Below the pieces are notes generated by a model. The model had not been told where the DNA came from, did not search any database, and saw only the letters and a program-made list of their open reading frames with translations. A stretch of 64,000 nucleotides of DNA from a bacterium (GTDB lineage: Bacteria > Zixibacteria > MSB-5A5 > GN15 > FEB-12), in the NCBI GenBank assembly GCA_016708025.1, contig JADJGQ010000002.1, positions 838,232 through 902,231 of the forward strand, written 5' to 3'. The position numbers and the translations under genes were made by a program. Of the stretch, positions 6,088 through 62,221 are shown one piece after another; the stretch's first letter is position 1, and the number at the start of each line of letters is the position of its first letter.

Positions 6088-6096
6088 CGTTACCTC

Positions 6097-6163: not shown

Positions 6164-6178
6164 AGTAAGAGGAAACGG

Positions 6179-7168: not shown

Positions 7169-7194
7169 AAAAAAAGGCGGCCAGTGGCCGCCTT
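7169..7194 (-). terminator. Rho-independent terminator of secA
   Basis: AAGGCGGCC-agt-GGCCGCCTT 9-bp stem (7174-7194) lies 6 nt past the secA stop. A U-run follows on the minus strand (plus-strand A-run 7169-7175). Confidence 0.8.
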
Positions 7195-7199
7195 TCAGA

Positions 7200-11883: not shown

Positions 11884-11919
11884 CTGTAGATTTGGGCTAA
11901 GTTACCGATATAGAAGAAG

Positions 11920-12825: not shown

Positions 12826-12828
12826 CTT

Positions 12829-38307: not shown

Positions 38308-38625
38308 TTGGGCGGTCGACTATATTTGAAAAGGGCGCCTTGTACTCCTCACGGCACCGCCTTTTCGTCTTCACATGGTCTAACAGCATTGACTCGTAGG
38401 AATATCTAACGGGTACTTTTGTGCTTTGGCAGCTACCCTCGGACGATAGTCTGTTTGTCCGATGCGTCCTGCCGGGCTAAGGTTGACTAATTACATACCC
38501 TAAGAGGGAGCCGAGCGACCTGCTCCGGCATTACGCCGGGACAGGATCATACTGGGGCGGAAAATTACTACATGTATCATACAGCTTCGACATTGATTCG
38601 AAACCTGTCATATAGGAGAAACACC

Positions 38626-41628: not shown

Positions 41629-41632
41629 GATC

Positions 41633-43405: not shown

Positions 43406-43422
43406 GCATCGTTGCAAGACGT

Positions 43423-43450
43423 TCCGGCCGGCTGGCTTAAGCCGGCCGGA
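43423..43450 (+). other. GC-rich perfect hairpin between two T9SS cargo genes
   Basis: TCCGGCCGGC-tggcttaa-GCCGGCCGGA, a 10-bp perfect stem with no downstream T-tract. Confidence 0.6.
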
Positions 43451-43470
43451 CACTAACTGGCGGTGAAGAA

Positions 43471-44505: not shown

Positions 44506-44526
44506 GGAACAGCCCAAGTAGAGAAG

Positions 44527-44558
44527 AGCCCCGAGAGCGATCTTGGGGCTTTTTCTTT
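44527..44558 (+). terminator. Rho-independent terminator
   Basis: AGCCCCGAGA-gcga-TCTTGGGGCT 10-bp stem (one G.U pair) followed by TTTTCTTT. Confidence 0.8.
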
Positions 44559-44621
44559 GTCTGCAGACCCCGGAAAACCGGCTAAGAAAAACTATTGCCC
44601 GCATCTGAAAAGGCCGATATT

Positions 44622-45647: not shown

Positions 45648-45660
45648 CCCCGAAAATCGG

Positions 45661-45690
45661 TTGACAACCCTACCTCTTGTTTGCTAAGTT
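45661..45690 (+). promoter_or_regulatory. Sigma-70-like promoter for tRNA-Arg
   Basis: TTGACA (45661-45666), 18-nt spacer, TAAGTT (45685-45690), ~24 nt before the tRNA 5' end. Confidence 0.45.
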
Positions 45691-45713
45691 GGTCCTTCCA
45701 ACGACACAAACAT

Positions 45714-45787
45714 GCGCCCGTAGCTCAACTGGATAGAGCGTCTGGCTACGGACCAGAAGGTTTCGGGTTCAAATCCTGACGGGCGTA
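45714..45787 (+). tRNA. tRNA-Arg (anticodon ACG)
   Basis: 74-nt cloverleaf folded by hand: acceptor GCGCCCG/CGGGCGT (G1.U72), D-arm GCTC-AACTGGATA-GAGC, anticodon arm TCTGG-CTACGGA-CCAGA, T-arm TCGGG-TTCAAAT-CCTGA, discriminator A. No CCA is encoded. Confidence 0.92.
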
Positions 45788-45817
45788 CTTTTTTCTTCCA
45801 CCTGGGAGGGTGTCGTC

Positions 45818-46552
45818 ATGGAACACCAAGCGTTTTCTCCAAAACAACGGCTCCTTGATCTCAAACCACTAGGTACGTTAACTAACGTGGTGATTCTTGC
45901 CCTCATCGTTTGTGCGGTCCTCTCCGTCCTGCAGGGCCTCAACATTGTCTCCGAAATTGAATTGCTCAGTCGGATCAAGGCAGGGGACGAGGTCCTTGAG
46001 GCAGAGGCTGTCACGATTGAAGAGAGAATTGATCAACTGGTCTGGCTTCAGCTTGGGGCTTTCCTTTTCAGCGGAATACTTTTCATAACATGGTTCCATC
46101 GCGCTTATGCAAACGTCGCTCAGTGGTCTCCCGACGGCACAGCATACGCTACGAAATGGGCGGTGATTGGATGGCTCATTCCGATCCTCCACGTCGTACG
46201 CCCATATCAGATCGCTAAGGAGATCTGGACCAAATGCTGTGTCCGTCAATCTCCTAACGTATTCGCGGTGGCTGCACCGTCAGGTACCAGTCTCATTGGT
46301 TATTGGTGGGGGGCGGCCTTGCTCATGGGGGCATTGGACAGGATTGGATTCCAGTGGTCGCAACATGCTGAGACAATCGAACAGGCCTTAGTGGCCGGCT
46401 ACATCATAGTCGCATCCGAAAGCATGACCGTCATCGCCGCATTCATTGCCATGTCCTTTGTGCGCGAACTCTCGGCCAGACATGAACGGGCGATCCGCTC
46501 CTATCAGTCGCCGATCGCGATCGATGGACTCATGCAAACACGGATGTCATAA
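45818..46552 (+). CDS. Polytopic membrane protein, DUF4328-like
   Basis: 244-aa ORF with GGGAGGG upstream and four TM segments. The motif WAVIGWLIPILHVVRPYQIAKEIW resembles the DUF4328 signature; this family call is from memory and is tentative. Confidence 0.6.
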   Translation: MEHQAFSPKQRLLDLKPLGTLTNVVILALIVCAVLSVLQGLNIVSEIELLSRIKAGDEVLEAEAVTIEERIDQLVWLQLGAFLFSGILFITWFHRAYANVAQWSPDGTAYATKWAVIGWLIPILHVVRPYQIAKEIWTKCCVRQSPNVFAVAAPSGTSLIGYWWGAALLMGALDRIGFQWSQHAETIEQALVAGYIIVASESMTVIAAFIAMSFVRELSARHERAIRSYQSPIAIDGLMQTRMS

Positions 46553-46580
46553 CTCTGACTTCTGAGCAAAAGGATGCACC

Positions 46581-46961
46581 ATGACCGCTAATGGCCTCTT
46601 CCGGAAAGTAGATACCGTCATGCTCCGCGTCGCTGATCTGGAAAAGTCGCGCGCCTGGTATCGTGAAAAACTGGGTGTGAAAGAGCTGTTCGGCGAAAAG
46701 AAAGAGAACCTGGTGGTCATCTCATTTGGCGGAGATACCTCCATAACGCTCTGGCAACTCAAAGAGGGTCAATCGTTGACTCCGGGGGCCAAAACCGGTT
46801 GCTTCCCTATCCTGATGTCCGATGATGTTCGCAGGGCACACCGAACCCTGTCCGAACGCGGCGTGCAGACCGAACCGGTGCAGTCCGGCGGATCAGTTCA
46901 GTGGTTCGCGTTTTACGATCTGGATGGGAATCGGATCGAGGTGTGCGAAGTGTTCGCCTAG
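46581..46961 (+). CDS. VOC/glyoxalase-family protein
   Basis: 126-aa ORF with a betaalphabetabetabeta module pattern (VDTVMLRVADLEKSRAWY...FYDLDGNRIEV). Confidence 0.8.
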   Translation: MTANGLFRKVDTVMLRVADLEKSRAWYREKLGVKELFGEKKENLVVISFGGDTSITLWQLKEGQSLTPGAKTGCFPILMSDDVRRAHRTLSERGVQTEPVQSGGSVQWFAFYDLDGNRIEVCEVFA

Positions 46962-46985
46962 TCCACAAGAAATTTTCGATTCAAT

Positions 46986-47017
46986 AAAAAAGCCCGGCAA
47001 TCAGCCGGGCTTTTTTT
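46986..47017. terminator. Bidirectional rho-independent terminator between convergent genes
   Basis: AAAAAA-GCCCGGC-aatca-GCCGGGC-TTTTTTT; the 7-bp GC stem is flanked by an A-run and a T-run. Confidence 0.85.
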
Positions 47018-47039
47018 GTCAGATTGACTCTGAATCAGA

Positions 47040-49370
47040 TCACTTCAACAGCATCATCTTCTTCGTCATCACCTGATCACCCGTGACCAAGCGATAGAAG
47101 TAGACACCGGATGAGACCGATGCGCCGCCATCTGTCGTCGAATTCCAGACGACTGAATGACGACCCGCTGCAAGCGAACCATTCACCAGAGTTGCGACTC
47201 TCGATCCGAGGATATTGTACACCTCGAGTGTCACCGGCCCGGCGGTCGGCAGACTGAATTCGATTGTGGTGCTCGGGTTGAACGGGTTCGGGTAGTTCTG
47301 GTCGAGCGTAAACTCCTCAGGCAACGAATTGCCAAACGCGGAGATCTCTCCAGTCGTCCCGCCGCCAAAAGCGGCAGAGGTCGTGCCACGGAAGATGATC
47401 TCATCTATGTACACATCATCCTGATCATTGCTGGCATCACACATGAAGCGGATCTTTGCGTTGGTCGGGAAGTTGTACGTGGTGCGCGGGATTGATACAA
47501 CCGCATGGTAATACGCGTTATTTACGTAGGTAGTGCCAAATATGAAGTTACCGACGGTTAGCCAGGAAGTACCATTAAAGTACTGGACCCAGAAATTCTC
47601 TCCGGACTCCATACTCACACCCTTGAACCAGAAATCAACTTCAAGCCGCTGATACGCTGTCACGTTGTAGCTCGCCGTATGGTAGAATGACGATGCGGTG
47701 CTGCTGTTGTCCTGAATATCAGCAGAATACGAACCCTGATGTGAATTCGTGGTCGTCAGCGCACGCGACATGTCAGAACCACCGTCCGTATAGGACCCCA
47801 TTCCGGTTTCGAAATTGTCCGAGGTGATGGTAGTCCAGGTGGAAGGCGTCGTGGCAGTTATATAGTTGGTCTTGATTTCGCCATCGGAACCGTACGCGTT
47901 GGTGGCGGTCAAAGTCACTGTGTAGGTGCCAGCGGCCGCATAGACGTGAGACGGATTCTTAGTTGTCGACGTACCACCATCACCAAAGTTCCAGGCCCAA
48001 CTGGTCGGGCTGTTGCTTGACAGGTCCGTGAAGTTGACTGTCAACGGCGCATTGCCTGAGGTCGGCGTGCCGCTGAAGTTGGCGACCGGCGGGTTATTGG
48101 TCGAAATGGAGTTCAATGCCGCCGCGGCATTGATCAGACCATAGCCATAATACTGATCCCAGCCCGCTGTACCTTTGTCGGTGGCGGTATTCTGGATAGC
48201 TGCGCGAACCGCGGCGGGAGACATCGTGCCGCCGTTCTTGGCGATCAAGAGAGCCGCAACACCGGCTACATGCGGACAGGCCATCGACGTTCCTTCGTAG
48301 AAGTAATAGCCGAAGGTTCCGTAGTTCGTCCCGTCGTGCGTCTGCTGCAGTACGCCATCAGGGTAGGTGTCGCCATTTTGGTCAACCGCAACGTCGCCAC
48401 CCGGGGCGCAGATATCAATGGTCGAACCAAAACAGGTGTACCAAGTATAGGTCTGGTCATAACGGACCGCAGAGACAGAGATACACTGCGTGTACGCCGC
48501 GGGATACTGCGGCGCAGAGGTACCTTCGTTGCCGGCCGCGCAAACGATCGTAACGCCGAGATTGTAGGCGTACGTGATCGCGTCCTGCAAAGCGGTCGAG
48601 GTGGAGGGTCCGCCAAGGCTCATGTTGATCACTTTAGCGCCATTGTTGGCCGCGAAGGTGATGCCGTTGATGATGGCGGTATAGGTACCGTTTCCGGAAG
48701 CATCCAGAACCTTGACCGGCATGATGCTGCAATTGTAGGCGACACCCGCCACGCCGAGGCTGTTGTTGGTGGTCTGGGCGATCGTGCCCGCCACGTGCGT
48801 GCCATGGGCGCAGTCATCGTTCGGATGAGTGTCATTGTTCACGTAGTCATAGCCCGGCACGAAGGAAGTACCTGCCAAGTCTGGCGCCTGTGTAAAGGCT
48901 CCATAGGTCTCATAAGCAACGCCGCAGTCGATAACGGCCACGACAACACCTGAACCGGTAGACTGATCCCAGGCGGCCGGCATGCTGATCATCGGCATAT
49001 GCCACTGGTAGCTGTAATACGGGTCGTTTGGCGTCATGAAGGCCTGAGCGATGTAGTTCGGCTCGGCGTATTCGACGTCCGGTCGGCTGCTGAATGCGGC
49101 AACCATCTCTTCGACTGTCTTGTCAGCGGGGATATTCAAAAGATTGATGCCGATCGACGAATTGGTTTCTGCAAGAGTAGTGCCCAGAGCGGCTTGAGCG
49201 GCGGTGATCGCCTGTCTGCCGACGTCGGCTTTAAATTTCACAATTACCTGGCCCGGCGCATAGGTTGCACCAGTTTCGACCACGCAGGATTTCCCAACTT
49301 TAAAATCCTCGGCTGCGGATGCGAAGCTGAAAAGGGCAAGAACCAGAACTAGTGTGAGAAAAGTTCTCAT
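47040..49370 (-). CDS. Secreted subtilisin-family (S8) protease with a PKD domain and T9SS C-terminal domain
   Basis: The start is trimmed to MRTFLTLVLVLALFSFASA/AE. It has an I9-like propeptide and the catalytic triad motifs VAVIDCG, HGTHVAGT and GTSMACPHVAG. A PKD repeat (WNFGDGGTS...GTYTVTLTATN) and the CTD NYPNPFNPSTTIEFSLP...YFYRLVT..KKMMLLK follow. Confidence 0.92.
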   Translation of the reverse strand: MRTFLTLVLVLALFSFASAAEDFKVGKSCVVETGATYAPGQVIVKFKADVGRQAITAAQAALGTTLAETNSSIGINLLNIPADKTVEEMVAAFSSRPDVEYAEPNYIAQAFMTPNDPYYSYQWHMPMISMPAAWDQSTGSGVVVAVIDCGVAYETYGAFTQAPDLAGTSFVPGYDYVNNDTHPNDDCAHGTHVAGTIAQTTNNSLGVAGVAYNCSIMPVKVLDASGNGTYTAIINGITFAANNGAKVINMSLGGPSTSTALQDAITYAYNLGVTIVCAAGNEGTSAPQYPAAYTQCISVSAVRYDQTYTWYTCFGSTIDICAPGGDVAVDQNGDTYPDGVLQQTHDGTNYGTFGYYFYEGTSMACPHVAGVAALLIAKNGGTMSPAAVRAAIQNTATDKGTAGWDQYYGYGLINAAAALNSISTNNPPVANFSGTPTSGNAPLTVNFTDLSSNSPTSWAWNFGDGGTSTTKNPSHVYAAAGTYTVTLTATNAYGSDGEIKTNYITATTPSTWTTITSDNFETGMGSYTDGGSDMSRALTTTNSHQGSYSADIQDNSSTASSFYHTASYNVTAYQRLEVDFWFKGVSMESGENFWVQYFNGTSWLTVGNFIFGTTYVNNAYYHAVVSIPRTTYNFPTNAKIRFMCDASNDQDDVYIDEIIFRGTTSAAFGGGTTGEISAFGNSLPEEFTLDQNYPNPFNPSTTIEFSLPTAGPVTLEVYNILGSRVATLVNGSLAAGRHSVVWNSTTDGGASVSSGVYFYRLVTGDQVMTKKMMLLK

Positions 49371-49757
49371 TTGCCTATCCTTCCGTACAACTGTGAGGGT
49401 TGTGCATGTGAGCCTGCCGGTCACGTTTCCATAGAACTGGAGTGTCGCATTGCGGCGCTCACCTGCAATTGAAGTTAGTTAATCAGCAATAACAAGAACC
49501 GCGGAATTATTTGATCAGAGATTCTCTGGCGAGTTCACCCCCCTTCGTTCGACGCACACCCACACCACAGCATCACGCATTAGAGAATCACCTGTGAGGA
49601 CCGCGACATAAATGTGACCGGTTTTTGTCTTTAATTGTTGGTGTTGAGATCATCAACGATGATGTAATAAGGGAGAGGGGAATCGATTATGCAAGAAAAA
49701 ACCTCACACGCAACAATGTCCCTGTTGGCATTTTCGTGGACACTTCAGTAAAGAATC

Positions 49758-49787
49758 AGGCGCATGTGAAGGATTACACATGCGCCT
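49758..49787 (-). terminator. Terminator hairpin after the kinase gene
   Basis: AGGCGCATGTG-aaggatta-CACATGCGCCT 11-bp perfect stem, 41 nt past the kinase stop. On the minus strand GATTCTTTAC follows. Confidence 0.7.
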
Positions 49788-49827
49788 GTTACAATTGGAA
49801 ACACTCGTGAGAGCTAGCCCATGAGGC

Positions 49828-52809
49828 TCAACTCGTTAACTTCGCCAGTCGGGCTTTCGCATCTTTGATCTCATCGATCTGTATGTCCGCATTTCCCCAA
49901 AACTTAAGCATCTCACTAAAGTACTTGGTCGCCTCGGCCTTGTTTCCCAGACCTTCGTAACCGATCCCGATATAGTACAGAGCCATCGGATAGCCGATCC
50001 CGCCGGAACTCTCTTCTTCACCGGAAACGAATCGCTTGAGTATGTCGATCCCCTCCTGGTAAGAGCCACGGCTGATCAGAATATACGCCATCTCCCGATC
50101 GTTGCCGCTGTTGCCCTGTTGCTGCGTTTTGATCAGATCGCGATATCCTTCGAGCAACAACACGGTATCGGGTCTTGCCAGACCTTCGAAAATCTTCTCC
50201 AGCCCATCTGTGATCCCCCAGAGCTCGGACGGAATGCGTGATTTGAATTGAGCGATATCCTCACGAATCATCTTTCGCGCCTGATCAGCTTTGGAATGAT
50301 CATGCTCCACTAAAACCAGCGCATAGTTGCTGAACATGTTCGCGGTGCGATACCGATAGGATTCTTCATACAACTTGAGTCCGGTGTCGGTGATACCGCA
50401 GTGAAGATAGCCGCGAGCCACTGTCTGGAGTGTATTGGCGAGAATGCCGCTATCGCCAAGTTGCTTGGCGGCATCAGCCATGCGATCGTACTGCTGCAGC
50501 GCTTCTCTGAACTTGCCGTTCCAGATCGCCAGCGTGGCCATCTGCTCATAATAGTCGACCATGTCATACAGATTGCCGGGGTCGAGTTGCTTGTAGTTCT
50601 CGGTTAGCGCGGTGGCTTTGGCAAAGTCGCGACGATAGATAGCCAGACGGATCAGATTGGCCAATGCGCCGCGATGTTTCGGGAAGCGCGCCAGGATAGC
50701 GTCAAATTCTTTTTCCGCCAGATCTCTCTTCCCCTGCTGCAGGTAAGCGCTAGCCAACAAGGCATACGGATTAGGCGAATCCGGGTGCTCCCGTTTCGTT
50801 TTCTCCGCGATCCGGATCGCCTCGTCATACTTGTCAAAGCTGATGTATATTTCCGAACGGAAATCCTGCGGAAGCTGATAAGTCGGGTTTATGGCGAGCG
50901 CGGAATCAAACTGCGCGAACGCCTTGGTCGTATCCTTGGTGAACTCGTAAACCAGGATCCCATAGATGGTGCGCGCTTCGATGTCGTCAGGATAGTTGCT
51001 CACCATGGAACGCATCTTAGCGAAGGCGTCATCGAACTTCTTGTTCATCCAGATATCGGCGTAGACATCCAATAGACTCCGTTCGCGGACGGGCAGTTTC
51101 GACTGATATTGCAGAGCCTTGGCTATATACCCGGCGGCTTTTTGCGGCCGTCCCTGAAAGGCATTGATCATCCCCAGGCGCATATAGGGGAGAGCGAACG
51201 TCGAATCGAACGAGAGTGCCCGCTCAAAATTGACGATCGCTTCTTCGTTCAGTCCTTTCAGGAAATTCTCCAGCCCCAAAACGTAGTTTTTGAAGGCTTC
51301 GGGAGAGGCCGAGGTCAATTTGCGAATATCCTGATCGCCCGTGGCAGTGGCAATATTCATCGAACTGGCGATCTTGTCGGTCAGGCTGTCGACCAGCACA
51401 AACGGGTCTTCGCCGACAACTTTTTCACCCATCAGTACGCGACCGCTGGAGGCTTCCTCCAAACGAGCATCGATCCTGATCTGCTTCCCGACCTTGAAGA
51501 GTGTACCGGTCAGGACATTGGTGGCACCAAGCTTTGAGGCGATCGCCCGACTGGCATCGCTGGAGATCTCGCCGCCATTGGCTTTGCTCGGTTCCAGCAT
51601 ATCCAAAATGCGCTGGCGACTGATCAAGTTCATTTCCTTATTCTGCGCCAGGTCGGTCAGCAGCATCTCCGGAAGGCCGGACTCCATCCAGTCGTATTCC
51701 GGATCGCCGGTTTTATTGGCAAAGTCCAAGACAGCCAGGCTGTTCGGCTTTGCCTGCAGGTCAACACTGAAACTCAGATTGGAGCCTTCAGAAAAGAACA
51801 CTTTCCAGACAATTCCGATCACCGCGATCGCGATCACGGCGGTTTTCCAGTCGATGATCCATGACTTGGATTTCTTGACCGTCTGTGGTGCCGCGCGCAA
51901 TGCAGAGATGGAATCCGACGTACCGCTTTCGTAGAGACGGCGGAGATTGCGAAGGTCCACTACCAGATCGCGTGTATCCTGGTAGCGGTCGTTCGGGTCC
52001 TTGTGCAGGCACTTGTCAACGATCCGTTCCAGCTCCATGGGAATCGTCTCGTTGCGCATCCGAATAGAGTCGTGGCGCGCTTCGAGGATCTTGGCCAGAG
52101 TGGAGACCTCGGTCGGTCCAGTGAAGGGAAACTCGCCGGTCGCCATCCGATAGAGCAACACACCGAACGAGAAGATATCGGATCGAATATCCACTACCTC
52201 GCCGCGGATCTGTTCGGGTGACATATAAGAAACCGTGCCGACTATCTTACCGGCGCGGGTCAGCTCTTTGGAAACAGTGCGTGTGGAATCACCCTCGGAG
52301 AATTGTACCGGCTGCACCGGCTTCGCCAATCCAAAGTCGAGGATCTTTGGCTGGTCATCCTCGTTCACGATGATATTGTCCGCCTTGATATCCCGGTGTA
52401 CCACATTGATCTTGTGGGCCGCCGCCAATCCCGAGGCGATCTTTTCCGCCAACTTAACCACGGTGGAAATATCGGAGGACCGTGCTTTCATGTAGTCGGA
52501 AAGGGATTTTCCCTTGACGTACTCCATGACGATGAAAGTTACGTCGCTGCCGGCGGCATCCTTGGTGGTGTCAATGTCATAGATCGCCATCACGTTCGGA
52601 TGTGAGACCTGCGCGGCGGTCTTGGCTTCCCGCTGGAACCGGGCAAGACGATCATCATCATCTCCCGGTTTGAAAGAGAGGATCTTGAGGGCGACCTCGC
52701 GATGTAGTTTCTGGTCTTCCGCGAGATAGACCTGTCCCATTCCTCCTTCTCCCAGGAGTTTGATGATCTTGAAATGGGCGAAACTCTGGCCTGGCTCAAG
52801 CATGGTCAT
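49828..52809 (-). CDS. Hanks-type Ser/Thr protein kinase with TM, TolB-N-like domain and a long TPR array
   Basis: 993-aa ORF with GEGGMGQVY, ALK, HRDIKADNI, DFGLAK and SYMSPEQ. A TM segment (AVIAIAVIGIVWKVFF) is followed by LAVLDFANKTGDPEYDW... (TolB-N-like) and ~450 aa of TPR. Confidence 0.92.
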   Translation of the reverse strand: MTMLEPGQSFAHFKIIKLLGEGGMGQVYLAEDQKLHREVALKILSFKPGDDDDRLARFQREAKTAAQVSHPNVMAIYDIDTTKDAAGSDVTFIVMEYVKGKSLSDYMKARSSDISTVVKLAEKIASGLAAAHKINVVHRDIKADNIIVNEDDQPKILDFGLAKPVQPVQFSEGDSTRTVSKELTRAGKIVGTVSYMSPEQIRGEVVDIRSDIFSFGVLLYRMATGEFPFTGPTEVSTLAKILEARHDSIRMRNETIPMELERIVDKCLHKDPNDRYQDTRDLVVDLRNLRRLYESGTSDSISALRAAPQTVKKSKSWIIDWKTAVIAIAVIGIVWKVFFSEGSNLSFSVDLQAKPNSLAVLDFANKTGDPEYDWMESGLPEMLLTDLAQNKEMNLISRQRILDMLEPSKANGGEISSDASRAIASKLGATNVLTGTLFKVGKQIRIDARLEEASSGRVLMGEKVVGEDPFVLVDSLTDKIASSMNIATATGDQDIRKLTSASPEAFKNYVLGLENFLKGLNEEAIVNFERALSFDSTFALPYMRLGMINAFQGRPQKAAGYIAKALQYQSKLPVRERSLLDVYADIWMNKKFDDAFAKMRSMVSNYPDDIEARTIYGILVYEFTKDTTKAFAQFDSALAINPTYQLPQDFRSEIYISFDKYDEAIRIAEKTKREHPDSPNPYALLASAYLQQGKRDLAEKEFDAILARFPKHRGALANLIRLAIYRRDFAKATALTENYKQLDPGNLYDMVDYYEQMATLAIWNGKFREALQQYDRMADAAKQLGDSGILANTLQTVARGYLHCGITDTGLKLYEESYRYRTANMFSNYALVLVEHDHSKADQARKMIREDIAQFKSRIPSELWGITDGLEKIFEGLARPDTVLLLEGYRDLIKTQQQGNSGNDREMAYILISRGSYQEGIDILKRFVSGEEESSGGIGYPMALYYIGIGYEGLGNKAEATKYFSEMLKFWGNADIQIDEIKDAKARLAKLTS

Positions 52810-54458
52810 TTCCTTCTGACGAGCAGCATAGTTATATCGTCCGAGCGGGGGCCGTCCCCGACATACGCTTCAATATCTTCCGTCAGGCGACGGGCTATTA
52901 CGTCGATCGACTCAGCGCGGTTGGCAACGACAAGTTTTTCCATGCGCAGATCGGTGTATGGTTCTTCGCCGCGCATCGCTTCGGTGACACCGTCGCTGAA
53001 TACAAAAATGAACTCCCCGGAAGATAAGTGAATGGTTGACTCCTGCCACGTTGAAAAATCAAACGCCCCAATCATAGTTCCGGAAGGTTGCAGATACTCA
53101 AGCGAACCATTCGCACGAACCACCAGCGGCGGATTGTGGCCGGCATTGACAAATGTGACCGTTTCGCTGTCCGGAGTGATCAATCCCATGAAGAGGGTGG
53201 CAAAATCTTCCGGCGCGCTATAGCGGTGCAACTGTGTGGAAACCGATTTGACCGCCCGCTCGAGCGTGAAAGTCGGGTCGTTATAAAAGATTCGGAACGA
53301 GGCAAGAATATTCGACATCAATAATGCCGCGCCGAGTCCTTTACCGGATACATCGGCCACCAGAAAGACGAGCCGACCATCGGGGAGCGCCGCGACATCA
53401 TACAGGTCACCGCCCACCAGTCGTGACTGGCGCTGAAAAGCGTGGACATCAAATCCACTTATCCGCGGCGGTATTTTGATAAGCAAATTGCTTTGGATCG
53501 AAGCGGCCCGGTGCAGCTCGGCATCGATTAACTGCTTTTCCTGTCGCGCCTGCAACAACTGGTAGTTCATCAGCCGGGCGGCTATAATATTACCGAAGGT
53601 CGCCAGCAATCGAAGGTATTCGTCGCTGTACCGGTGGAGAGGATTGGTGGTGTCGACATACAGTATCCCAAGCACCTTGTCTTCGTCCATCATCGGTACC
53701 GCCATAGCCGATTTCATCGCCGACATAATGACGGACTGCTGAGAGGCGAAGCGGGGATCGCTGGTTGGATCGCCGATCAGGATCGCGCTTTTATTGGTCA
53801 GGATCTCTCGAACGATCGTCCGCGAGAGAGTAAAGGTCCCCAGATCACGGCCATTCGGCAGAAGAGTCGCCGCGGCGAAAATCTCGTTCTGGTCGGAAGA
53901 TGTAAAAAGCACCGCCAGTCGTTCCGATGGGATCACCTTTGCGACCAGGGAGAGGGCGCGTCGAAGCATCTCTTCCTGCGGCTCCGGCAGGACGAGGGTT
54001 TTAGCCATATCGAACAGAGTCGGCAGCAGTTCGGGAAGGTCGGTCACTCGGGTTGGGAGCGGTTTGAGCGCTTCATTCATCGACAGGAAAACCGAGTGCT
54101 CGGCAATATTCTCGGGAAGTATCGCGCGGGGAAAACTGGTCGAATCGTTGGCCGGGGCAGTGCCGGAGGAGAGCTTGAATTGCGCCTGTCCAAAGGTCAG
54201 ATGGTCGCCCGCTTTGACCTGAATCCGGCCGCTAAGTTTCTTGCCGTTAACGAATGTGCCGTTGTGACTCTCAAGGTCCGTGAGAAAGATGACCAGAGGA
54301 TCGGGCCCTATCTCAAACTGAGCATGTTTGCGTGAAACGGTTTTGTCCGGGACCACCAGATCGGCCTCAGAACTTCGTCCGATCACATAGTTTCCGCTAT
54401 CCAGCATCCAGGAGTAGTATTGAGAGCCATCCGATCCAATGAGTTGAATCACGTACAT
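52806..54458 (-). CDS. FHA-GAF-SpoIIE/PP2C phosphatase
   Basis: FHA domain (YVIGRSSEADLVVPDKTVSRKHAQF...HNGTFVNG), a GAF core, and a RsbU-type PP2C (GGDLYD, VADVSGKG, NAGHNPP, FSDGVTE). The start is ambiguous: ATG 54458, GTG 54452 or TTG 54482. An ATGA overlap links it to the kinase gene. Confidence 0.88.
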   Translation of the reverse strand: MYVIQLIGSDGSQYYSWMLDSGNYVIGRSSEADLVVPDKTVSRKHAQFEIGPDPLVIFLTDLESHNGTFVNGKKLSGRIQVKAGDHLTFGQAQFKLSSGTAPANDSTSFPRAILPENIAEHSVFLSMNEALKPLPTRVTDLPELLPTLFDMAKTLVLPEPQEEMLRRALSLVAKVIPSERLAVLFTSSDQNEIFAAATLLPNGRDLGTFTLSRTIVREILTNKSAILIGDPTSDPRFASQQSVIMSAMKSAMAVPMMDEDKVLGILYVDTTNPLHRYSDEYLRLLATFGNIIAARLMNYQLLQARQEKQLIDAELHRAASIQSNLLIKIPPRISGFDVHAFQRQSRLVGGDLYDVAALPDGRLVFLVADVSGKGLGAALLMSNILASFRIFYNDPTFTLERAVKSVSTQLHRYSAPEDFATLFMGLITPDSETVTFVNAGHNPPLVVRANGSLEYLQPSGTMIGAFDFSTWQESTIHLSSGEFIFVFSDGVTEAMRGEEPYTDLRMEKLVVANRAESIDVIARRLTEDIEAYVGDGPRSDDITMLLVRRK

Positions 54459-54782
54459 ATCCTCTTTAGGTGGTGGGGCCAAAACACGGGCAACCCCTCA
54501 AGTCATCAGATGGGGAGCGTGTCGGCAACTGGTTAGTCAATGTAACCGGAAGGGAGTTAAAGAGAAATAGGAAAGAGTGGGGTGAGCAAGGCGGAGATAA
54601 AAAGACACCCAGCAACCAAACTCGCCATGGCTGCCGGGTGGTTTAACCCTCTGTTGCACATGAGGGCATTTTTCCCCGTTTGCGATGTCCCGCTCCCGGG
54701 AGACAACTTTTTGCCGGGGTCGTGAGAGCTTGCCGCATAGGGCAACCGTCTCCCTGACTGACTCCAGCTTCGCAATTAATAC

Positions 54783-54797
54783 GCAATATGAATGCCA
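54783..54797 (-). promoter_or_regulatory. Sigma-54 (-24/-12) promoter
   Basis: The minus strand reads TGGCAT-TCATA-TTGC, against the consensus TGGCAC-N5-TTGC, with correct GG-to-GC spacing. It sits in the gap directly downstream of a sigma-54 activator gene and points at the FHA-phosphatase gene. Confidence 0.65.
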
Positions 54798-54921
54798 ACT
54801 AACTTATCTACTTTAGATGACGTATGCTGTTGTTGAATAGTGCAATACGGATAGCACTCAACCTGATTAGTGATGATATGGTGGTATGCACCTCAAATCA
54901 GGCCTAAGCAATCGGGTAATT

Positions 54922-56280
54922 TTAACCCAATGAGATACCGAGGTTGTCAATTTGCTTCCGCATATTGGCTGGGTCCTTGCCGAACTCTCTCGCCACTTTG
55001 CTGACATTCCCTTTGTGCCGATCCAGCGCCTTGACTATCAGGATCCGCTTGAAATCCTTGACCGCCTCATCAAAATCGTTCGGGATACCGGCAGCCTTGT
55101 CGCCTATTTCGAGCTGGTTCAGGACATCCCGGCGGGAGATGAAGTATGAAGGGGTATCGGCCAGGAGTGCTTTGATTTTCTCATACAGTTCGCGGACATT
55201 GCCTCGCCAGTTATGCTCGATCAACAGATCGCGTCCCTCCTGGTCGAAATATTTGGGATCGATCCTGGCCTCATCGCAGTACTTCTCAACGAAGTAGTCT
55301 ATTAAGGCCGGAATGTCTTCTCTTCGTTCGCGCAACGAGGGAAGCGAGATCACTGTCCCGCGTATGCGAAAATAGAGATCTGACCGAAATTTCCCCTGAT
55401 CTACCATTCCGGCGAGATCGGCATTGGTCGCGCAGATCAAGCGGACATCGACCTGTTCAGTCTCGATCGCGCCGAGGCGGAGTATTTCTCCGCTTTCCAG
55501 AACTCGCAGGAGTTTGACCTGCGTGTTGTGATCGAGTTCTCCTATCTCGTCGAGAAAGACCGTTCCTTTGTTTGCATGCTGCAAAAGTCCGACCTTATCA
55601 CTATTCGCGCCGGTAAAGGCCCCCTTGAAATGCCCAAACAACTCATCCGCGACCAGATCCGGCGCCTTCTGACCGCAGTTGTAGGCGACGATCGGTTGTC
55701 CAAAGCGGGGGCTGAGGCGGTGAATCGCTTTTGCCACCAGTTCTTTCCCCGTACCGGTTTCACCGAGGATCAGCACTTTCTGGTCCTTGGGACCGATTTC
55801 GTCGATCTGGCGGTATATCTCCAGCATCTGGCGCGACTGTCCGACCATTTCGAACATCTCACGGGCATAGGCGATGAGCGTTTCCGGATGTGTTTTGAAC
55901 AGCGAACTGCGAACCGCATTGCGCACGGCCGTTTCCAGTCGCTCGGGGTTCTCGTTCTTCCCAATATAGTCGTATTGCTGCTCTGCATCCCGCTGCTTGT
56001 GCGAGTATTCCCCCGGATAGCCAGTGTGAAAAATGATCGGGATGTCGAGCGGGATAGCCCGGATCCGTCGGGCCGTCTGAAAGCCATCCATCTTGGCCAT
56101 GCGAATATCAAGAATGATCGCCGCGGTATCGGTGTGAGATCGAAGCTGATCGAGTGCTTCCTGACCGGAGGTCGCCACGACCACCTCGTATCGGTCCAGA
56201 AAAATTTCGCGAAGCGCTTCCAGCACCAGCGGATCATCATCGACGATAAGTATTTTTCCGCGAATCTTACTCAGTGGCAC
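54922..56280 (-). CDS. Sigma-54-dependent response regulator (NtrC family)
   Basis: The track ORF is trimmed to GTG 56280 (GGGAGG 5 nt upstream), giving (M)PLSKIRGKILIVDDD. It has a receiver Asp in ILDIRMAKMDG, an AAA+ domain (GETGTGKE, GAFTGA) and a C-terminal Fis-type HTH. Confidence 0.92.
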   Translation of the reverse strand: MPLSKIRGKILIVDDDPLVLEALREIFLDRYEVVVATSGQEALDQLRSHTDTAAIILDIRMAKMDGFQTARRIRAIPLDIPIIFHTGYPGEYSHKQRDAEQQYDYIGKNENPERLETAVRNAVRSSLFKTHPETLIAYAREMFEMVGQSRQMLEIYRQIDEIGPKDQKVLILGETGTGKELVAKAIHRLSPRFGQPIVAYNCGQKAPDLVADELFGHFKGAFTGANSDKVGLLQHANKGTVFLDEIGELDHNTQVKLLRVLESGEILRLGAIETEQVDVRLICATNADLAGMVDQGKFRSDLYFRIRGTVISLPSLRERREDIPALIDYFVEKYCDEARIDPKYFDQEGRDLLIEHNWRGNVRELYEKIKALLADTPSYFISRRDVLNQLEIGDKAAGIPNDFDEAVKDFKRILIVKALDRHKGNVSKVAREFGKDPANMRKQIDNLGISLG

Positions 56281-59200
56281 GTGTACCTCCCGCTTCCGCG
56301 TTAAAGCGCGGAAGCATGATGTCAAAACTTGTTCCATGTCCATGTCCGGAAGTGACCTTGATCGAGCCTCCGTACATCTCAGCAATTTTCTTTGCCATCG
56401 CCAATCCAATACCGGTTCCGCTGCGCGGTTTGGTGCTGAAAAAGGCGTTAAATATCCGGGGTAGGTTCTCGGCAGGGATCCCGGGACCATTGTCTGCAAC
56501 CCGGATCGATACCTGATCCCGAGTGGTCCGCGCCGTGATCGAGATGAGCGGTTGTTCCGTTTCGTGCAGCGCATCGATCGCGTTGACCACCAGGTTATTC
56601 AGCAGGCTGTTGAAATGCGGCACGCTGCAGGCAACCACAGCGTCCGGGGAGATATTCGAGTCGACGCGAACTCCGTGTCTTTCACAGCGAGCTCGATTTT
56701 GCTCAATGATCTCTGTGACCAGATTGCCGACAGAGACTTCTTCGATCTTTCGATTCGCTTCCAGCCGCGAGTAATGGGTCACCGATTCGGTCATATGGAT
56801 CGCCCGGGCGATCGCCTGTTCGGCCAGTCCCAGAAGCTTGAGGTCTCGCTCGGCCTCTTCGCCAGAGCCTGATCTTCCTTCCAGCCGCTCACGCATTTTG
56901 TAGAGGCAGGTAGTGGCAGGGAAGAGGGAGTTGTAGATCTCGTGCGAAACACCTCCCGCGATCTCACGGACCTGCTGGTAACGCTCCTGGTAGATCCGCT
57001 GGAGCTCGGCTTCCGCATGAACTCGATCAGTGATGTCGATGGTCGTTCCCAACACACAGGTCTGGCCCATGAACTGGATCACTTTTGCGGAGTAATCAAC
57101 CCACCGATACTCACCATCTTTGCGAACTATCTTGACCTCGTAACGTGGGGGGACCTCGTTCCCAGCCAGCCGGTCCCGGCCGCGCTGAGTCACCAATTGC
57201 CTGAAGTCGGGGTGGATGACTTCCCAGAAACTCATTTTCAGCAATTCATCGAGACTGTACCCCGTGATACGCGTTGACGCGGGGTTGCAGTAGAGAAGGC
57301 GGTCGGCTCCAAAGATAGTGATTCCTGCGGTCACGGACTCAGCAACAGCTCGGAATTTCGCTTCACTCTCGCGCAGACTGAGTTCGATCTGGTGTCGGGC
57401 CGTGATATCCAGCCAGGTCGCCTGGATAAGGACCCGATCAGGCGCCTGGATCCGCCGAGCCAGTGCCTCGAGCCGCTTGGGAGTCCCCTTGAAAGTCGTG
57501 ATTTCGGATTCAAATTGGGCCGGTGCGTCACCACCCGTGAGGCGGCGGCGGATTCTATCCATCCATGCCACGACATTCTCTTCTCCGACCAGAGCCTTGA
57601 GAAAGGCCGGCATCGGCATAGATATAAGTTCGTGTACATCGATCTCCAGCATACGGGCGAGTTGCTCGTTGGCATACAGCACCTGAACATCGTCGTACTG
57701 CAGTATCCCCAGATTGGAGTGCTCGGTCAAACCGCGGAATTTTTCCTCACTCTCCCGGAGTGCTTCTTCGGCGCGCATTCGTTCGGTAATGTCCTGATAT
57801 GTGCCCAGCACACCCACCACGGTACCATCGGGATCTCGAAGCGGCACTTTGCTGGTCAGGAGGTGAATGATCTCACCAGTTGGCGTAGTCTGCGGTTCTT
57901 CGATCAGCAGCTTCGGCTCTCCACTCTCGATCACCGCACGGTCGTCGGCCCGATAAAGATCAGCTTGTGCCCGCCAGACCATGCTATAATCATCTTTGCC
58001 GATGATCTCTTCCGGGGTGTTGAATCCCGCATCTCGCGCAAACTGTGAATTGCATCCCAGGTAAAGCCCTCGCTTGTCTTTCCAGAATACCCGCGCCGGG
58101 ATCGAGTCGAGCACGATACCAAGGAACTCACGTGAGGCCCTCAATTCTTCCGTGGCGATTTTCTTCTCCGTAATATCGATCATAACTGTCAGAAAGAACT
58201 CTGTTTCCTGACTTCGGATAACTTCCCCGCTGAAGAGGCCGTGGAGTATCACTCCGTCTTTGCGGCGGACTCGCATTTCAATATCTGTGATCCGGCCGGT
58301 CTGTCTCAAGCGCCGACCGGCGGCAGATTGCTGATCAATATCAACGAAGATAGACAACTCACTCGGTGTGTGGCCGATCACTTCATCCCGATCATGGCCG
58401 ATCGTTTGCAGGAACGAATCGTTGACATCGACAAAACGCCCATGTGTAGTGTCCGTCAGTGCCATGAGAGCCGGATTGAATTGAAAAAGCTGCTGGAACA
58501 GCATTTTGGCTTCCTGTTCGGCACTCAAGTCCTTACTGAGGCCAAAGAGACACTCGGAACCATACCATCTGCCGAACCAGAGGCGAGTCTCGACTGAGAC
58601 CAACGATCCATTCTTTTTCAGCAAGGGGAGTGGGCAGTCATTGCGCTTTCCCCGCAGGATAGCATCGATCAGACTCAGTGCCTCCTCCCGACGATCCGCG
58701 GGATGCAGGTCGACCAGCTTCATCGTCGTGAGCTCTTCACTTGAATAGCCAAGCTTGGTCCGGAGTGCCCTATTGGTCAGAAGGATGCGACCAGCTCTAT
58801 CGGCCACGATCAGCATATCGCCGATCGTCTCAAAAAACGCTCTGAAATTGGACTCACTATCCCGAAGGGCCTGCTCGGAGCGTTTTCGATCTGAGATGTT
58901 GCGGACGATCGCCAGGACTTCCGAAGGTCCGCTAGCCACGATGCGTGCTTCGTAGTCCTCGAAACGATTTCCCACCGGCAACTGGTATTCAAGGTACTGA
59001 GTCTCTCCGTTACTTAGCACCTTAACGATCGCTCCATGCACCATCTCGGCCAGCGGCGGAGGCAGAACGTCCCGTGCAGGTTTTCCGAGGAACTGATCAC
59101 CGGGAGAAAAGAGCTCGGATTGTCGACTCGCCTGATAATCAAGGAATATGCCGTCAGCCGTCATCCTGAACATCAGGTCCGGTGTGGCATTAAGCATCGC

Positions 59201-60703
59201 GTCATTGCGGGCTTCAGCCTTTTTCAGCGCATTGATCGCATGTCGGCGCCGGATATTCACCACAACCAATTGAATTGACACCAGGAAGAGGGCAATGACA
59301 AACCAGGTGCGATAACGCCAGAGCAACGCAACCAATCGCTGCGACCATGGTTTCGCCTGCAGATTGCCGACCAGGAATCCGTTTCCGGCATTGGTGACAA
59401 ACATGGTGACGCCGCCGGTTGAATCGAGCGCGGCCGGAAGCAGTTCGCTGGCAATGCCTGGAAGGTACCCGCGGCATTCCCATCCCTTGCTGTACAAAAC
59501 AGACCCGCCCTCCACGACAAACTGCAGGACCGTCTCCCCGGATTTTGGGAGTTGGAACTGAGTGAGGTACTGCCCCAGGTTTGCCCCGGTGATGCGGGCG
59601 AGCGGTTGGAGTGACAGATCGAAAATCGACGCGTCTCCTCCGGTGCCGATCAAAAGGATCTCCGGTCGTTCGTCGCCTATCAGGTCGACCAACTCAAGGA
59701 AGGCGGTCCTCTCTTGAACTGCTATGGACTGTCGGAGAGTCCCATCTGCGTCAATGATAGAGAGCCAGTCATTGGAAGAATCGCCTGACTGACCGGGAAA
59801 CTCAAATTGGTGAATGAGCGCATACAGCGTGTCACCGGGGAGGGTGCGAATAGATACGCTGGCGAATTTCGGGGCGAGACGATAATTAAAGATGATCTCG
59901 CCGCGTTGATTGAGGCGTGTCAGATAACCATACTGGTCATCGAAATTCGGATCCGTGACGCCGTTCTCCGGGCCATAGGCGCAAACAAGTATCCCCGGAT
60001 CGATCGAATCAAAACAGCTAACTGTATTGCCGGGGGTAGCCGAGGCCGCCATCGGCATGGACCACTCCACCACCATCCGCTCGATATCAATGCAGTAATA
60101 GACCCGCGGTCGTTTGTCGCGGCCAACCATCAGGTAGAAAAACAGCTCGGTCGTACCGTCGTAATCATAATCAAAGCTGGCGATATGATAGGGGGATGGT
60201 ATCCATTTGCCATTGCCGGTCTGATCGACTCCGGTAGTCAGAAAGAGCATATCGAACTTGTTGGAGCCGGGGAAATTGCGGGCAATGAACGCGGAATCAT
60301 TGCGAAACCCTATCAATGCGACACCATCACGCCGATTTACGGAGTCACGGAAGAGGCAATAATCACTGATCGTCAGGAAAACCGGGTCCTGGGAGAGCGT
60401 GCGGTTGTCGGGGAGCGAATTCACAAAAATCGAGGCGGCATCATCCTGATTGATGGCACAGTTTGAGACAAAGATGTACGCGATGGAATCTGATGCGGTA
60501 CGGCGCGTGGTGAGAAGTCGAGCGGGGCGATTGACCGACATCTGATTTTCGGTATGGCTGGACTCGATGAAGTGAGTGACACCATACGGCAATAGAGTGG
60601 TATCGCCGATCGGATCGGGCTCGATCACTTGTTGGGCGGATGTCATGCCAGCCGTCAGCGAGTAGACAAGCCAGACAATCAGAAGACGCGCCAAAGAAAC
60701 CAT
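56267..60703 (-). CDS. Sensor histidine kinase with a large periplasmic domain and six PAS-like domains
   Basis: 1478-aa ORF with a signal/TM segment, ~450 periplasmic residues and a second TM (WFVIALFLVSIQLVVV). Six PAS-like segments each follow a coiled ...LRESE... linker. H-box GVSHEIYNSL and HATPase motifs NAIDAL, DNGPGI and GTGIGL are present. Confidence 0.9.
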   Translation of the reverse strand: MVSLARLLIVWLVYSLTAGMTSAQQVIEPDPIGDTTLLPYGVTHFIESSHTENQMSVNRPARLLTTRRTASDSIAYIFVSNCAINQDDAASIFVNSLPDNRTLSQDPVFLTISDYCLFRDSVNRRDGVALIGFRNDSAFIARNFPGSNKFDMLFLTTGVDQTGNGKWIPSPYHIASFDYDYDGTTELFFYLMVGRDKRPRVYYCIDIERMVVEWSMPMAASATPGNTVSCFDSIDPGILVCAYGPENGVTDPNFDDQYGYLTRLNQRGEIIFNYRLAPKFASVSIRTLPGDTLYALIHQFEFPGQSGDSSNDWLSIIDADGTLRQSIAVQERTAFLELVDLIGDERPEILLIGTGGDASIFDLSLQPLARITGANLGQYLTQFQLPKSGETVLQFVVEGGSVLYSKGWECRGYLPGIASELLPAALDSTGGVTMFVTNAGNGFLVGNLQAKPWSQRLVALLWRYRTWFVIALFLVSIQLVVVNIRRRHAINALKKAEARNDAMLNATPDLMFRMTADGIFLDYQASRQSELFSPGDQFLGKPARDVLPPPLAEMVHGAIVKVLSNGETQYLEYQLPVGNRFEDYEARIVASGPSEVLAIVRNISDRKRSEQALRDSESNFRAFFETIGDMLIVADRAGRILLTNRALRTKLGYSSEELTTMKLVDLHPADRREEALSLIDAILRGKRNDCPLPLLKKNGSLVSVETRLWFGRWYGSECLFGLSKDLSAEQEAKMLFQQLFQFNPALMALTDTTHGRFVDVNDSFLQTIGHDRDEVIGHTPSELSIFVDIDQQSAAGRRLRQTGRITDIEMRVRRKDGVILHGLFSGEVIRSQETEFFLTVMIDITEKKIATEELRASREFLGIVLDSIPARVFWKDKRGLYLGCNSQFARDAGFNTPEEIIGKDDYSMVWRAQADLYRADDRAVIESGEPKLLIEEPQTTPTGEIIHLLTSKVPLRDPDGTVVGVLGTYQDITERMRAEEALRESEEKFRGLTEHSNLGILQYDDVQVLYANEQLARMLEIDVHELISMPMPAFLKALVGEENVVAWMDRIRRRLTGGDAPAQFESEITTFKGTPKRLEALARRIQAPDRVLIQATWLDITARHQIELSLRESEAKFRAVAESVTAGITIFGADRLLYCNPASTRITGYSLDELLKMSFWEVIHPDFRQLVTQRGRDRLAGNEVPPRYEVKIVRKDGEYRWVDYSAKVIQFMGQTCVLGTTIDITDRVHAEAELQRIYQERYQQVREIAGGVSHEIYNSLFPATTCLYKMRERLEGRSGSGEEAERDLKLLGLAEQAIARAIHMTESVTHYSRLEANRKIEEVSVGNLVTEIIEQNRARCERHGVRVDSNISPDAVVACSVPHFNSLLNNLVVNAIDALHETEQPLISITARTTRDQVSIRVADNGPGIPAENLPRIFNAFFSTKPRSGTGIGLAMAKKIAEMYGGSIKVTSGHGHGTSFDIMLPRFNAEAGGTRATE

Positions 60704-60759: not shown

Positions 60760-62067
60760 TTAGATTCGTTCATATGGATAGACTATGAACAATATAAGGG
60801 ATAACAGGAACAAAATCCAGATGCCTGCGTGAAGTTCTCGCGCTCGACCGGAGAATAGCTTGCAGACGACATAGAGGACAAAACCGGACGCAATCCCAAA
60901 GCCGATATTGTAGGTGAAGGTCATTAGCGCGATCGTCGCCACCGCTGGAAAAAGCTCGGTATAGTCGTCATACGGGAGGTGGCGAAGGGGGGCCATCATC
61001 AGGAATCCAACTATGACCAGCGCGGCTCCATAGGCAACTGCCGGAACGGCCATGTAGATCGGTGCCAGAAAGAGCGAAACCAGGAAAAGCCCGGCCGTTA
61101 TCAGGGAGGCAAAGCCGGTCCGCGCTCCGGACTCGATACCGGCGGCCGATTCAATGTACGCCCCGGAAGTGGAGGTGCCGACCAGAGCGGCGGCAGTAGT
61201 GGCCATCGCGTCAGCCATCATCGGCTTTTCGATCTCAGGCAGATTATTGTGGGCATCCAGAAGTCCCGCCCGAGCAGAGAGGCCGATCAGAGTCCCCATG
61301 GTGTCCACAAATGCCAGGATAAACAAGACGAGAATGATAGGGAAGAATTCAGGGGTTAATGCCCCCGCGATATCCAATTTACCAATGATCGGCGCCAGTG
61401 AGGGAGGGGCGGATAGAATGCTCTCCGGAAATGGGGAGACGTTAAATGCGAATGCAAGCAGAGTGGTAACCAGCATGCCGATCAGGATCGCACCTGGAAT
61501 GCGGCGGATGATCAGGACCGCGATCAGCAAAACTGCTGTGAGTGCCAGCAGTGGCCCGACGGCGGAAAGATCACCGATCTTGACTGGCGCACCGGGGACA
61601 CCGAGTCGAACCAGGCCAGCCTCGTTCAGTCCGATAAACATGATGAAAAAGCCGATTCCGGCGGCAAAAGCTCGTTTGAGATTCTCAGGAATGGCGCCTG
61701 CGATCCACCCCCTAATCCCAAAGAGAGTGATGACGATAAAGATCACGCCACTCAGAAAGAGAGCACCCAGCGCGGTCTGCCAGGCGAACCCCATCCCCAG
61801 ACAGACAGTATAGGCTATGAACGCGTTTTCTCCCATATATGGCGCAATGGCAAACGGACGGCGCGCGTAGAGTGCCATCAAAAGCGTGCCAAAGGCGGCG
61901 ATCAGGATTGTCGCTGTCGTACCGGCCTCGCGCGGGATCCCGCCGGCACTGAGGATCGCCGGATTGACGATGACGATATACGCCATCGCAAAAAACGTGG
62001 TGATGCCACCAAGGGTCTCTTGTCGGAATGAGGTCTGATGTTCAGCGAAGCGAAAGAAGCGTTTCAT
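60760..62067 (-). CDS. NCS2-family nucleobase permease (AzgA/PbuG-like)
   Basis: 435-aa polytopic ORF. The N-terminus FRFAEHQTSFRQETLGGITTFFAMAYIVIVNPAIL matches the AzgA-type signature. Confidence 0.88.
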   Translation of the reverse strand: MKRFFRFAEHQTSFRQETLGGITTFFAMAYIVIVNPAILSAGGIPREAGTTATILIAAFGTLLMALYARRPFAIAPYMGENAFIAYTVCLGMGFAWQTALGALFLSGVIFIVITLFGIRGWIAGAIPENLKRAFAAGIGFFIMFIGLNEAGLVRLGVPGAPVKIGDLSAVGPLLALTAVLLIAVLIIRRIPGAILIGMLVTTLLAFAFNVSPFPESILSAPPSLAPIIGKLDIAGALTPEFFPIILVLFILAFVDTMGTLIGLSARAGLLDAHNNLPEIEKPMMADAMATTAAALVGTSTSGAYIESAAGIESGARTGFASLITAGLFLVSLFLAPIYMAVPAVAYGAALVIVGFLMMAPLRHLPYDDYTELFPAVATIALMTFTYNIGFGIASGFVLYVVCKLFSGRARELHAGIWILFLLSLILFIVYPYERI

Positions 62068-62174
62068 CGAAACGTCCCAGACTGGTCAATTTCAGTTTGT
62101 GATAAAGCTAGGGCGATGGAACGGTTGTGACAAGCCTTTTTCGGGAGTTGATCAGGCGTCATACCGAAAAGAAA

Positions 62175-62196
62175 AAGGCGGCCCAATGGCCGCCTT
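62175..62196 (-). terminator. Rho-independent terminator of the PilX-like gene
   Basis: AAGGCGGCC-caat-GGCCGCCTT 9-bp stem. TTTTTCTTTTC follows on the minus strand. Confidence 0.8.
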
Positions 62197-62221
62197 CTCC
62201 GAAAATAATGTGATCATAGGG

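Follow-up and report, generated by a model that had tools for sequence, protein, structure and literature searches.

A candidate sigma-54-dependent small RNA adjoining a two-component system in Zixibacteria, next to a separate phosphatase/kinase pair

Does a sigma-54-type promoter that lies between an activator gene and a phosphatase gene serve that phosphatase gene? The question is raised by a 64,000-nucleotide (nt) stretch of Zixibacteria DNA (contig JADJGQ010000002.1, positions 838,232 to 902,231; hereafter the window). Its minus strand carries a block of four open reading frames (ORFs) between 49828 and 60703, whose domains we assigned by Pfam profile search. In transcription order, the genes encode a multi-PAS histidine kinase, an NtrC-type activator, an FHA-GAF-SpoIIE phosphatase and a Hanks-type Ser/Thr kinase. 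An earlier note had placed all four ORFs correctly, and had proposed that sigma-54-dependent transcription of the phosphatase/kinase pair is gated by a His-Asp relay. We could not uphold this gating, since a conserved terminator intervenes, the promoter unit tracks the activator, and the phosphatase/kinase pair is conserved alone. We think it probable that the block consists of two separate modules, which are neighbours in one clade only, and that the sigma-54 promoter mainly yields a ~175-nt RNA of the kinase/activator system.

The gap between the activator and phosphatase genes measures 463 bp (54921..54459), slightly more than the ~440-460 bp estimated before. The near-consensus -24/-12 element described in it is real. 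It is the sole TGGCAY-N5-TTGC match in the 64 kb (chance expectation 0.26 per window), its GG at -24 and GC at -12 are spaced 10 nt apart, and the gene of a GAFTGA-containing activator ends 125 nt upstream. We observed from spacer alignments that all of the eight distinct close relatives keep the element, as a conserved island amid variable spacer DNA. It is found there in the form TGGCAY-N5-TTG[C/T/A] (ACGC in locus L089), so that GG and TTG are retained and the C at -12 varies between C, T and A; a scan requiring a strict GC at -12 misses the TTGT and TTGA variants, which the alignments resolve. The -24/-12 match is thus present in orthologous loci, an absence from which the earlier note would have counted against it.

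The position of the promoter is also conserved. Of four activator loci that are more distant, three have it, 122-127 nt past the activator stop codon, as compared with ~125 nt in the window, and this fixed offset holds across 11 distinct loci, where the activators are 52-73% identical. The relaxed promoter pattern has a background of 4.7e-5 per nt in Zixibacteria DNA, which gives a chance of ~3e-4 per locus at that offset. We infer from the sequence and its placement that the promoter would be sigma-54-dependent. Half-sites begin just past the stop codon of the activator gene, which puts them ~85-125 nt upstream of the -24 element, and their position and dyad symmetry make them a candidate binding region for the activator.

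Downstream of the promoter, the gap contains a feature that had been overlooked, namely a structured, conserved RNA that has a strong terminator of its own (54771..54597). In the close relatives, the ~80 nt that follow the promoter are variable and are succeeded by a nearly invariant block of ~100 nt. Counted from the predicted start, the U tract ends after 173-183 nt in the eight distinct relatives despite their differing 5' halves. Both hairpins were recovered by RNAalifold, with compensatory changes in 4 pairs; in the named structure 95% of the cells pair, compared with ~42% when the partners were slid as a control, and the whole RNA has a folding z-score of -2.95. The second hairpin has the make-up of an intrinsic terminator, a GC-rich stem-loop followed by the U tract UCUUUUUAU and showing compensatory changes among relatives. 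The terminators across the loci range from -15 to -23 kcal/mol, and efficient termination would be expected at this one. No Rfam family was matched by the RNA at the gathering threshold or at E<=10, beyond a spurious hit of the mir-221 hairpin, and no conserved ORF was found in the gap. A covariance model, R1, which we built from the 3' domain of the RNAs of the close clade, recovers all clade members with 83-114 bits.

We also examined activator orthologues at 52-55% identity in other Zixibacteria, each of which has a multi-PAS histidine kinase before it. Loci L092, L097 and L098 carry GGCAT-N5-TTG[T/A] at the offset given above, and the promoter is followed by a stretch of 128-226 nt that closes in a strong terminator. 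In L092 and L097 the unit is succeeded by hyp (hydrogenase maturation) operons. In L098 the activator orthologue is followed by two tandem promoter-RNA-terminator units (8476-8937), whose terminators have the loop CCGUGCUCA in common, and then by a cbb3 oxidase/FixG cluster; because the next gene is convergent, a role as a leader is impossible at this locus. The association of promoter, RNA and terminator is therefore with the activator gene, and not with the phosphatase/kinase pair.

The distribution of the phosphatase gene gives the complementary picture. Its orthologues fall into >120 clusters of 55-92% identity, and the named ones are all from Zixibacteria except one 'FCB group bacterium'. 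A synteny scan with the phosphatase profile against one genome per species returned 80 loci. The Ser/Thr kinase gene lies immediately downstream of the phosphatase gene in every orthologous locus of at least 50% identity whose contig reaches far enough. On the upstream side, an activator or histidine kinase gene was found in one of the 13 species-representative loci. The upstream gene elsewhere varies, and codes for a ~400-aa protein without a Pfam family (six loci), a SET-domain protein, a QueF homologue or a dockerin protein. The four-gene order was seen in L081 (92% phosphatase identity), L084-L086 (90%), L096 (87%), L001 (84%) and L089/L090 (67%), and likewise in L091 and L095. It holds down to 67% phosphatase and 61-73% activator identity, and nowhere beyond this clade; L088, too, is without it. 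The four genes had been suggested to form one system. As 12 of the 13 orthologous loci at the species level are without the activator and the pair is phylum-wide, the order is a juxtaposition specific to the clade with at least 67% phosphatase identity, and not a conserved cassette. The phosphatase/kinase pair is a phylum-wide conserved unit that is separate from the kinase/activator pair.

The ~400-aa protein is conserved, and is encoded co-directionally and directly 5' of the pair in L004 (8733-9971), L008 (8758-9960), L009 (2743-3933), L012 (6894-8096), L010 (825-2087) and L006 (1-369); the window does not have it. Among the Acidobacteriota, there are a few loci (L042, at -60 nt, L058 and L060) where a sigma-54 activator gene stands just upstream of an FHA-GAF-SpoIIE homologue of 29-32% identity.

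Could the promoter nevertheless serve the phosphatase/kinase operon? The operon would then have a 5' untranslated region (UTR) of ~313 nt, the two-component system would gate the Ser/Thr module, and the hairpin and terminator would perhaps form a conditional attenuator. The four genes are indeed co-directional, and their order persists over the range of identities given above. In addition, the minus strand of the gap is without a sigma-70-type match, and the stretch from the terminator to the phosphatase gene includes another conserved block. However, a strong conserved terminator with a U tract stands ~140 nt ahead of the phosphatase start codon. Leaders of the riboswitch or attenuator type conserve their sensor part, whereas the 5' half is the variable one here, and no alternative (antiterminator) pairing was identified. 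The unit moreover tracks the activator and is found before hyp genes and before a convergent gene, and the activator is missing from nearly all species-level orthologous phosphatase loci. We therefore regard service of the phosphatase/kinase operon as unlikely. The wiring of the relay to the pair is unsupported, because the promoter most likely makes a small RNA (sRNA) belonging to the kinase/activator pair.

A second explanation is that the -24/-12 match and the hairpins arose by chance, the gap being made up of a terminator of the kinase/activator operon and an ordinary phosphatase promoter. Finding one strict match in 64 kb is in itself nothing unusual, as at least one occurred in 23 of 100 shuffles, and the C at -12 is unconserved. 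But the recurrence of the element at a fixed offset in 11 distinct loci is hard to reconcile with the background calculated above, and the terminator lies ~325 nt past the activator stop codon, after the promoter rather than right behind the gene. This explanation appears very unlikely to us. That the conserved gap element codes for a small protein is more improbable still: gene callers report a 65-aa ORF in L084-L086 and the gap of the window has several ORFs of 40-72 aa, but the L084 ORF begins upstream of the promoter, the 65-aa translation is conserved solely where it overlaps the RNA hairpin, non-triplet indels separate the relatives in the ORF region, and the conservation pattern tracks base pairing.

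Several observations weigh against two separate modules with an sRNA as the main product of the promoter. At -12, most relatives have T or A in place of C, which is off the canonical TTGC. We found no RpoN-box in the 64-kb window or in 1.48 Mb of fetched loci. Both ends of the RNA are predictions. R1 fails to pick up the RNAs of the activator loci outside the close clade, so that the case for their homology is one of position, architecture and a GUGC(U/G)(C/A)G motif common to the terminator loops. At the activator orthologue locus L093/L094 (strain RBG-1), an rRNA operon comes next and there is no such unit. Searches for a target or a protein partner of the sRNA by GGA, pairing and complementarity tests found none. 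Finally, no sigma-70-like promoter match for the phosphatase gene was seen on the minus strand of the gap, which keeps read-through a possible source of phosphatase transcription.

The rRNA operon of L093 bears on promoter usage in the phylum. At 9348-9870 of this locus, the 16S rRNA operon comes right after the activator orthologue and is preceded by two canonical promoters, TTGACA-N17-TATAGT/TGTATT, indicating that Zixibacteria use standard sigma-70 promoter boxes. As to sigma-54, our literature search returned nothing that connects it with Zixibacteria.

The searches for what the sRNA might act on were of several kinds. A sponge for a CsrA-type protein was rejected, as the RNAs show no enrichment of GGA motifs (4-8 observed vs 3-6 expected). 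RNAduplex predictions between the sRNA and the phosphatase translation start at eight loci gave long, loop-filled duplexes with no common site. Perfect complementarities of at least 10 nt elsewhere in the window were at chance level and away from gene starts, and pairing with the conserved CU-rich block ahead of the phosphatase gene was no better than with shuffled blocks. Shine-Dalgarno-like purine 4-mers are enriched ~2-fold in nine of ten RNAs, a weak lead. When metagenome contigs were scanned for the two sRNA loops with a gapped exact pattern, one locus came up, L087, which is a chance match inside a glycoside-hydrolase gene.

Based on these data, we propose the following working scheme. 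The multi-PAS histidine kinase would phosphorylate the NtrC-type activator, and the upstream NCS2 permease gene may be co-transcribed with them. The activator would bind the dyad sites that lie directly behind the stop codon of its gene, and would switch on the sigma-54 promoter (54797..54783). The main product would be a discrete non-coding RNA of ~175 nt, ended by the strong intrinsic terminator, and this sRNA may act post-transcriptionally, via base pairing or by titrating a protein. The phosphatase/Ser/Thr kinase pair would be an independent second module with its own conserved upstream element, into which partial read-through of the terminator is possible. In an extended form, the kinase/activator pair would be a phylum-wide regulator with a new sigma-54 sRNA family as its one conserved direct target, and conditional read-through, or an action of the sRNA on the CU-rich block, would couple His-Asp to Ser/Thr signalling in this clade; we consider this extension quite unlikely, and offer it as speculation.

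The proteins of the first module largely match their initial description. The histidine kinase begins with a signal peptide, a ~450-aa extracytoplasmic region that matches no Pfam family and one transmembrane (TM) segment. When its six ~120-aa PAS segments were scanned singly, five were over the Pfam cut-off and the fifth was marginal (25.9 vs 27 bits). HATPase_c scored 85.8 bits. The dimerization and histidine phosphotransfer (DHp) region gave no Pfam match to HisKA, and an H-box, SHEIYNSL, is recognisable there by eye. In the activator, Response_reg scored 71 and Sigma54_activat 207.8 bits, the AAA lid is present and HTH_8 is marginal (21.4 vs 22). The REC residues DD...D...T...K are seen in its sequence, as expected of an NtrC-type enhancer-binding response regulator, and its GAFTGA motif, reported before as intact, is indeed so and is the sole such motif within the 64-kb window. 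The activator start had been described as overlapping the kinase stop codon. The overlap is there, but it extends beyond the stop codon: translation begins at GTG 56280 behind GGAGG, giving an overlap of 14 nt with the 3' end of the kinase gene, as it does in the orthologues, which are 450-452 aa long. The two genes look translationally coupled. No terminator was found in the gap between the permease and histidine kinase genes; one is located upstream of the permease gene (62200..62171), and the permease-histidine kinase order recurs in L081 and L091. The kinase/activator operon probably begins with the permease gene. In L091, the histidine kinase and Ser/Thr kinase genes are each broken into several ORFs (3550-8026 and 11499-14511, respectively), which could reflect assembly indel errors or pseudogenisation.

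In the second module, the FHA-GAF-SpoIIE architecture of the phosphatase was borne out. The FHA signature (GR...SxxH...NG) and the metal-binding Asp residues are invariant in 20 orthologues, in keeping with an FHA reader and a SpoIIE phosphatase. The phosphatase more likely starts at GTG 54452 (548 aa) than at ATG 54458, judging from the sequence: this GTG lies 8 nt after AAGAGG, and the orthologues are 548 aa long and begin at the aligned GTG. In the Ser/Thr kinase, the motifs VALK, HRDIKADN, DFG and SPE identify a Hanks-type enzyme, and the kinase domain, TM segment and TPRs that had been read from it were confirmed; for its 'TolB-N-like' middle domain we obtained a sub-threshold FlgO match alone (E 0.0018). 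The predicted ATGA overlap between the two genes follows from their coordinates (52809/52806), and the pair looks translationally coupled. The hairpin behind the Ser/Thr kinase gene is also as announced, except that its stem has 12 pairs and not 11. The CU-rich block that lies behind the sRNA terminator and ahead of the phosphatase gene is kept in seven of eight close relatives, and nhmmer matches to it are confined to the clade among the fetched loci. For the phosphatase/kinase operon, it may provide the promoter/operator or an element of the 5' UTR. A classical PP2C phosphatase that stands alone (PP2C_2/PP2C, 350 aa) is encoded at 44595-45647 of the plus strand, ~4 kb from the Ser/Thr kinase gene. 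It is kept in that neighbourhood in L081, L091 and one contig of 65% identity, and could be the ordinary partner phosphatase of the Ser/Thr kinase.

The surroundings of the block are of a different kind. Secreted proteins with type IX secretion C-terminal sorting domains flank it (38572-49424), including an S8 peptidase with PKD domains, a CarboxypepD_reg protein and a BACON_2 protein. Such type IX tails on neighbouring proteins are consistent with an organism of the FCB group. The sole match in the window at Rfam gathering level is a tRNA gene (45714-45787, plus strand).

Table 1. Genes and non-coding elements of the block, in window coordinates
Feature	Position	Strand	Description
NCS2 xanthine/uracil permease gene	60760..62067	-	Pfam Xan_ur_permease, E 2e-40; 56 nt upstream of the histidine kinase gene
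Histidine kinase gene	56267..60703	-	1478 aa; signal peptide, extracytoplasmic domain, one TM, six PAS, H-box, HATPase_c
Activator gene	54922..56280	-	NtrC-type enhancer-binding response regulator, 452 aa; REC, AAA+ Sigma54_activat, GAFTGA, marginal HTH_8
Candidate activator binding region (upstream activating sequence, UAS)	54880..54920	-	TnACCyG / CrGGTnA half-sites, conserved in 10-locus alignment
Sigma-54-type -24/-12 promoter	54783..54797	-	TGGCATTCATATTGC, TGGCAT-N5-TTGC; predicted start near 54771
Predicted sigma-54-dependent sRNA	54597..54771	-	~175 nt; variable 5' half, conserved 3' domain
sRNA 3' domain motif	within 54597..54771	-	GGGCGGGAC; nearly invariant block
sRNA hairpin 1	54666..54647	-	CCCUC-AUGUGCAACA-GAGGG
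sRNA terminator hairpin	54640..54606	-	13-14 bp, GC-rich, -23.2 kcal/mol
sRNA U tract	54605..54597	-	UCUUUUUAU, directly after the terminator stem
CU-rich non-coding block	54520..54577	-	~58 nt, TTCCyCTTTCTCTTTAGCT..CTTCCAGTTACATTG..CCAGAAG; between sRNA terminator and phosphatase gene
FHA-GAF-SpoIIE (PPM-type) phosphatase gene	52806..54458	-	Pfam FHA 69 bits, GAF, SpoIIE 145 bits
Hanks-type Ser/Thr kinase gene	49828..52809	-	993 aa; Pkinase 172.5 bits, TM segment, middle domain, TPR array
Terminator-like hairpin	49757..49788	-	After the Ser/Thr kinase gene; 12-bp stem, -22.4 kcal/mol, weak T tract

The closest parallel to the first module is found in Pseudomonas, where crcZ, downstream of cbrAB, is a separate sigma-N-dependent unit that is directly activated by CbrB (PMC8871633). 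As in CbrA-CbrB-CrcZ of Pseudomonadaceae (PMC8871633), genes for a histidine kinase and an NtrC-type activator are directly followed by a separate sigma-54 sRNA gene, here by prediction. Extra RNA copies occur in both, as CrcY/CrcX there and as the two tandem units of L098 here, and so does a transporter linked to the kinase, which is an SLC5 domain fused in CbrA and a separate upstream NCS2 permease gene in the window. However, the RNAs have no sequence or Rfam relation, and the ~175-nt RNA is without obvious A-rich Hfq/Crc motifs. The histidine kinase of the window differs in its large extracytoplasmic domain, its six PAS segments and its lack of an SLC5 domain, and it belongs to a different, uncultured phylum. 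The locus may therefore be said to work like CbrAB-CrcZ by its predicted layout, yet to be no member of that system, given the lack of RNA homology and of the SLC5 domain.

In LuxO-Qrr of Vibrio and GlrK/GlrR-GlmY of enterobacteria, an NtrC-family regulator activates a sigma-54 promoter, and a terminated sRNA is encoded beside the regulator gene. The present locus resembles them in all three elements, the regulator, the promoter and the predicted adjoining terminated sRNA, but there is no sequence similarity, and the gene orientation and sensing inputs are other ones. The second module recalls the actinobacterial pknB-type clusters, in which a Hanks kinase, a PP2C phosphatase (PstP) and FHA proteins are encoded together. 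The common features are a Ser/Thr kinase, a PPM-family phosphatase and an FHA reader of phosphothreonine, and their joint coding suggests a writer/eraser/reader unit. In contrast to the actinobacterial clusters, FHA, GAF and a SpoIIE/RsbU-type PPM domain are fused in one protein here, the kinase has a putative extracytoplasmic FlgO/TolB-N-like domain and a TPR array, and the pair is confined to Zixibacteria and their close relatives in the FCB group, where it is uncharacterised.

The new feature of this locus is a candidate family of sigma-54-dependent sRNAs linked to a conserved two-component system of an uncultured phylum. The case illustrates that the next protein-coding gene is not necessarily the one served by a sigma-54 promoter beside an activator gene, and so corrects an inference at the operon level that was plausible. 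The phosphatase/kinase pair, being conserved phylum-wide, merits study in its own right. For Zixibacteria, a phylum of the FCB group, the RNA is a concrete candidate for the first regulatory small RNA, and comes with a likely activator and sensor. If this is true, the CbrAB-CrcZ style of layout, in which a two-component system, a sigma-54 promoter and an sRNA are combined, would reach beyond Proteobacteria.

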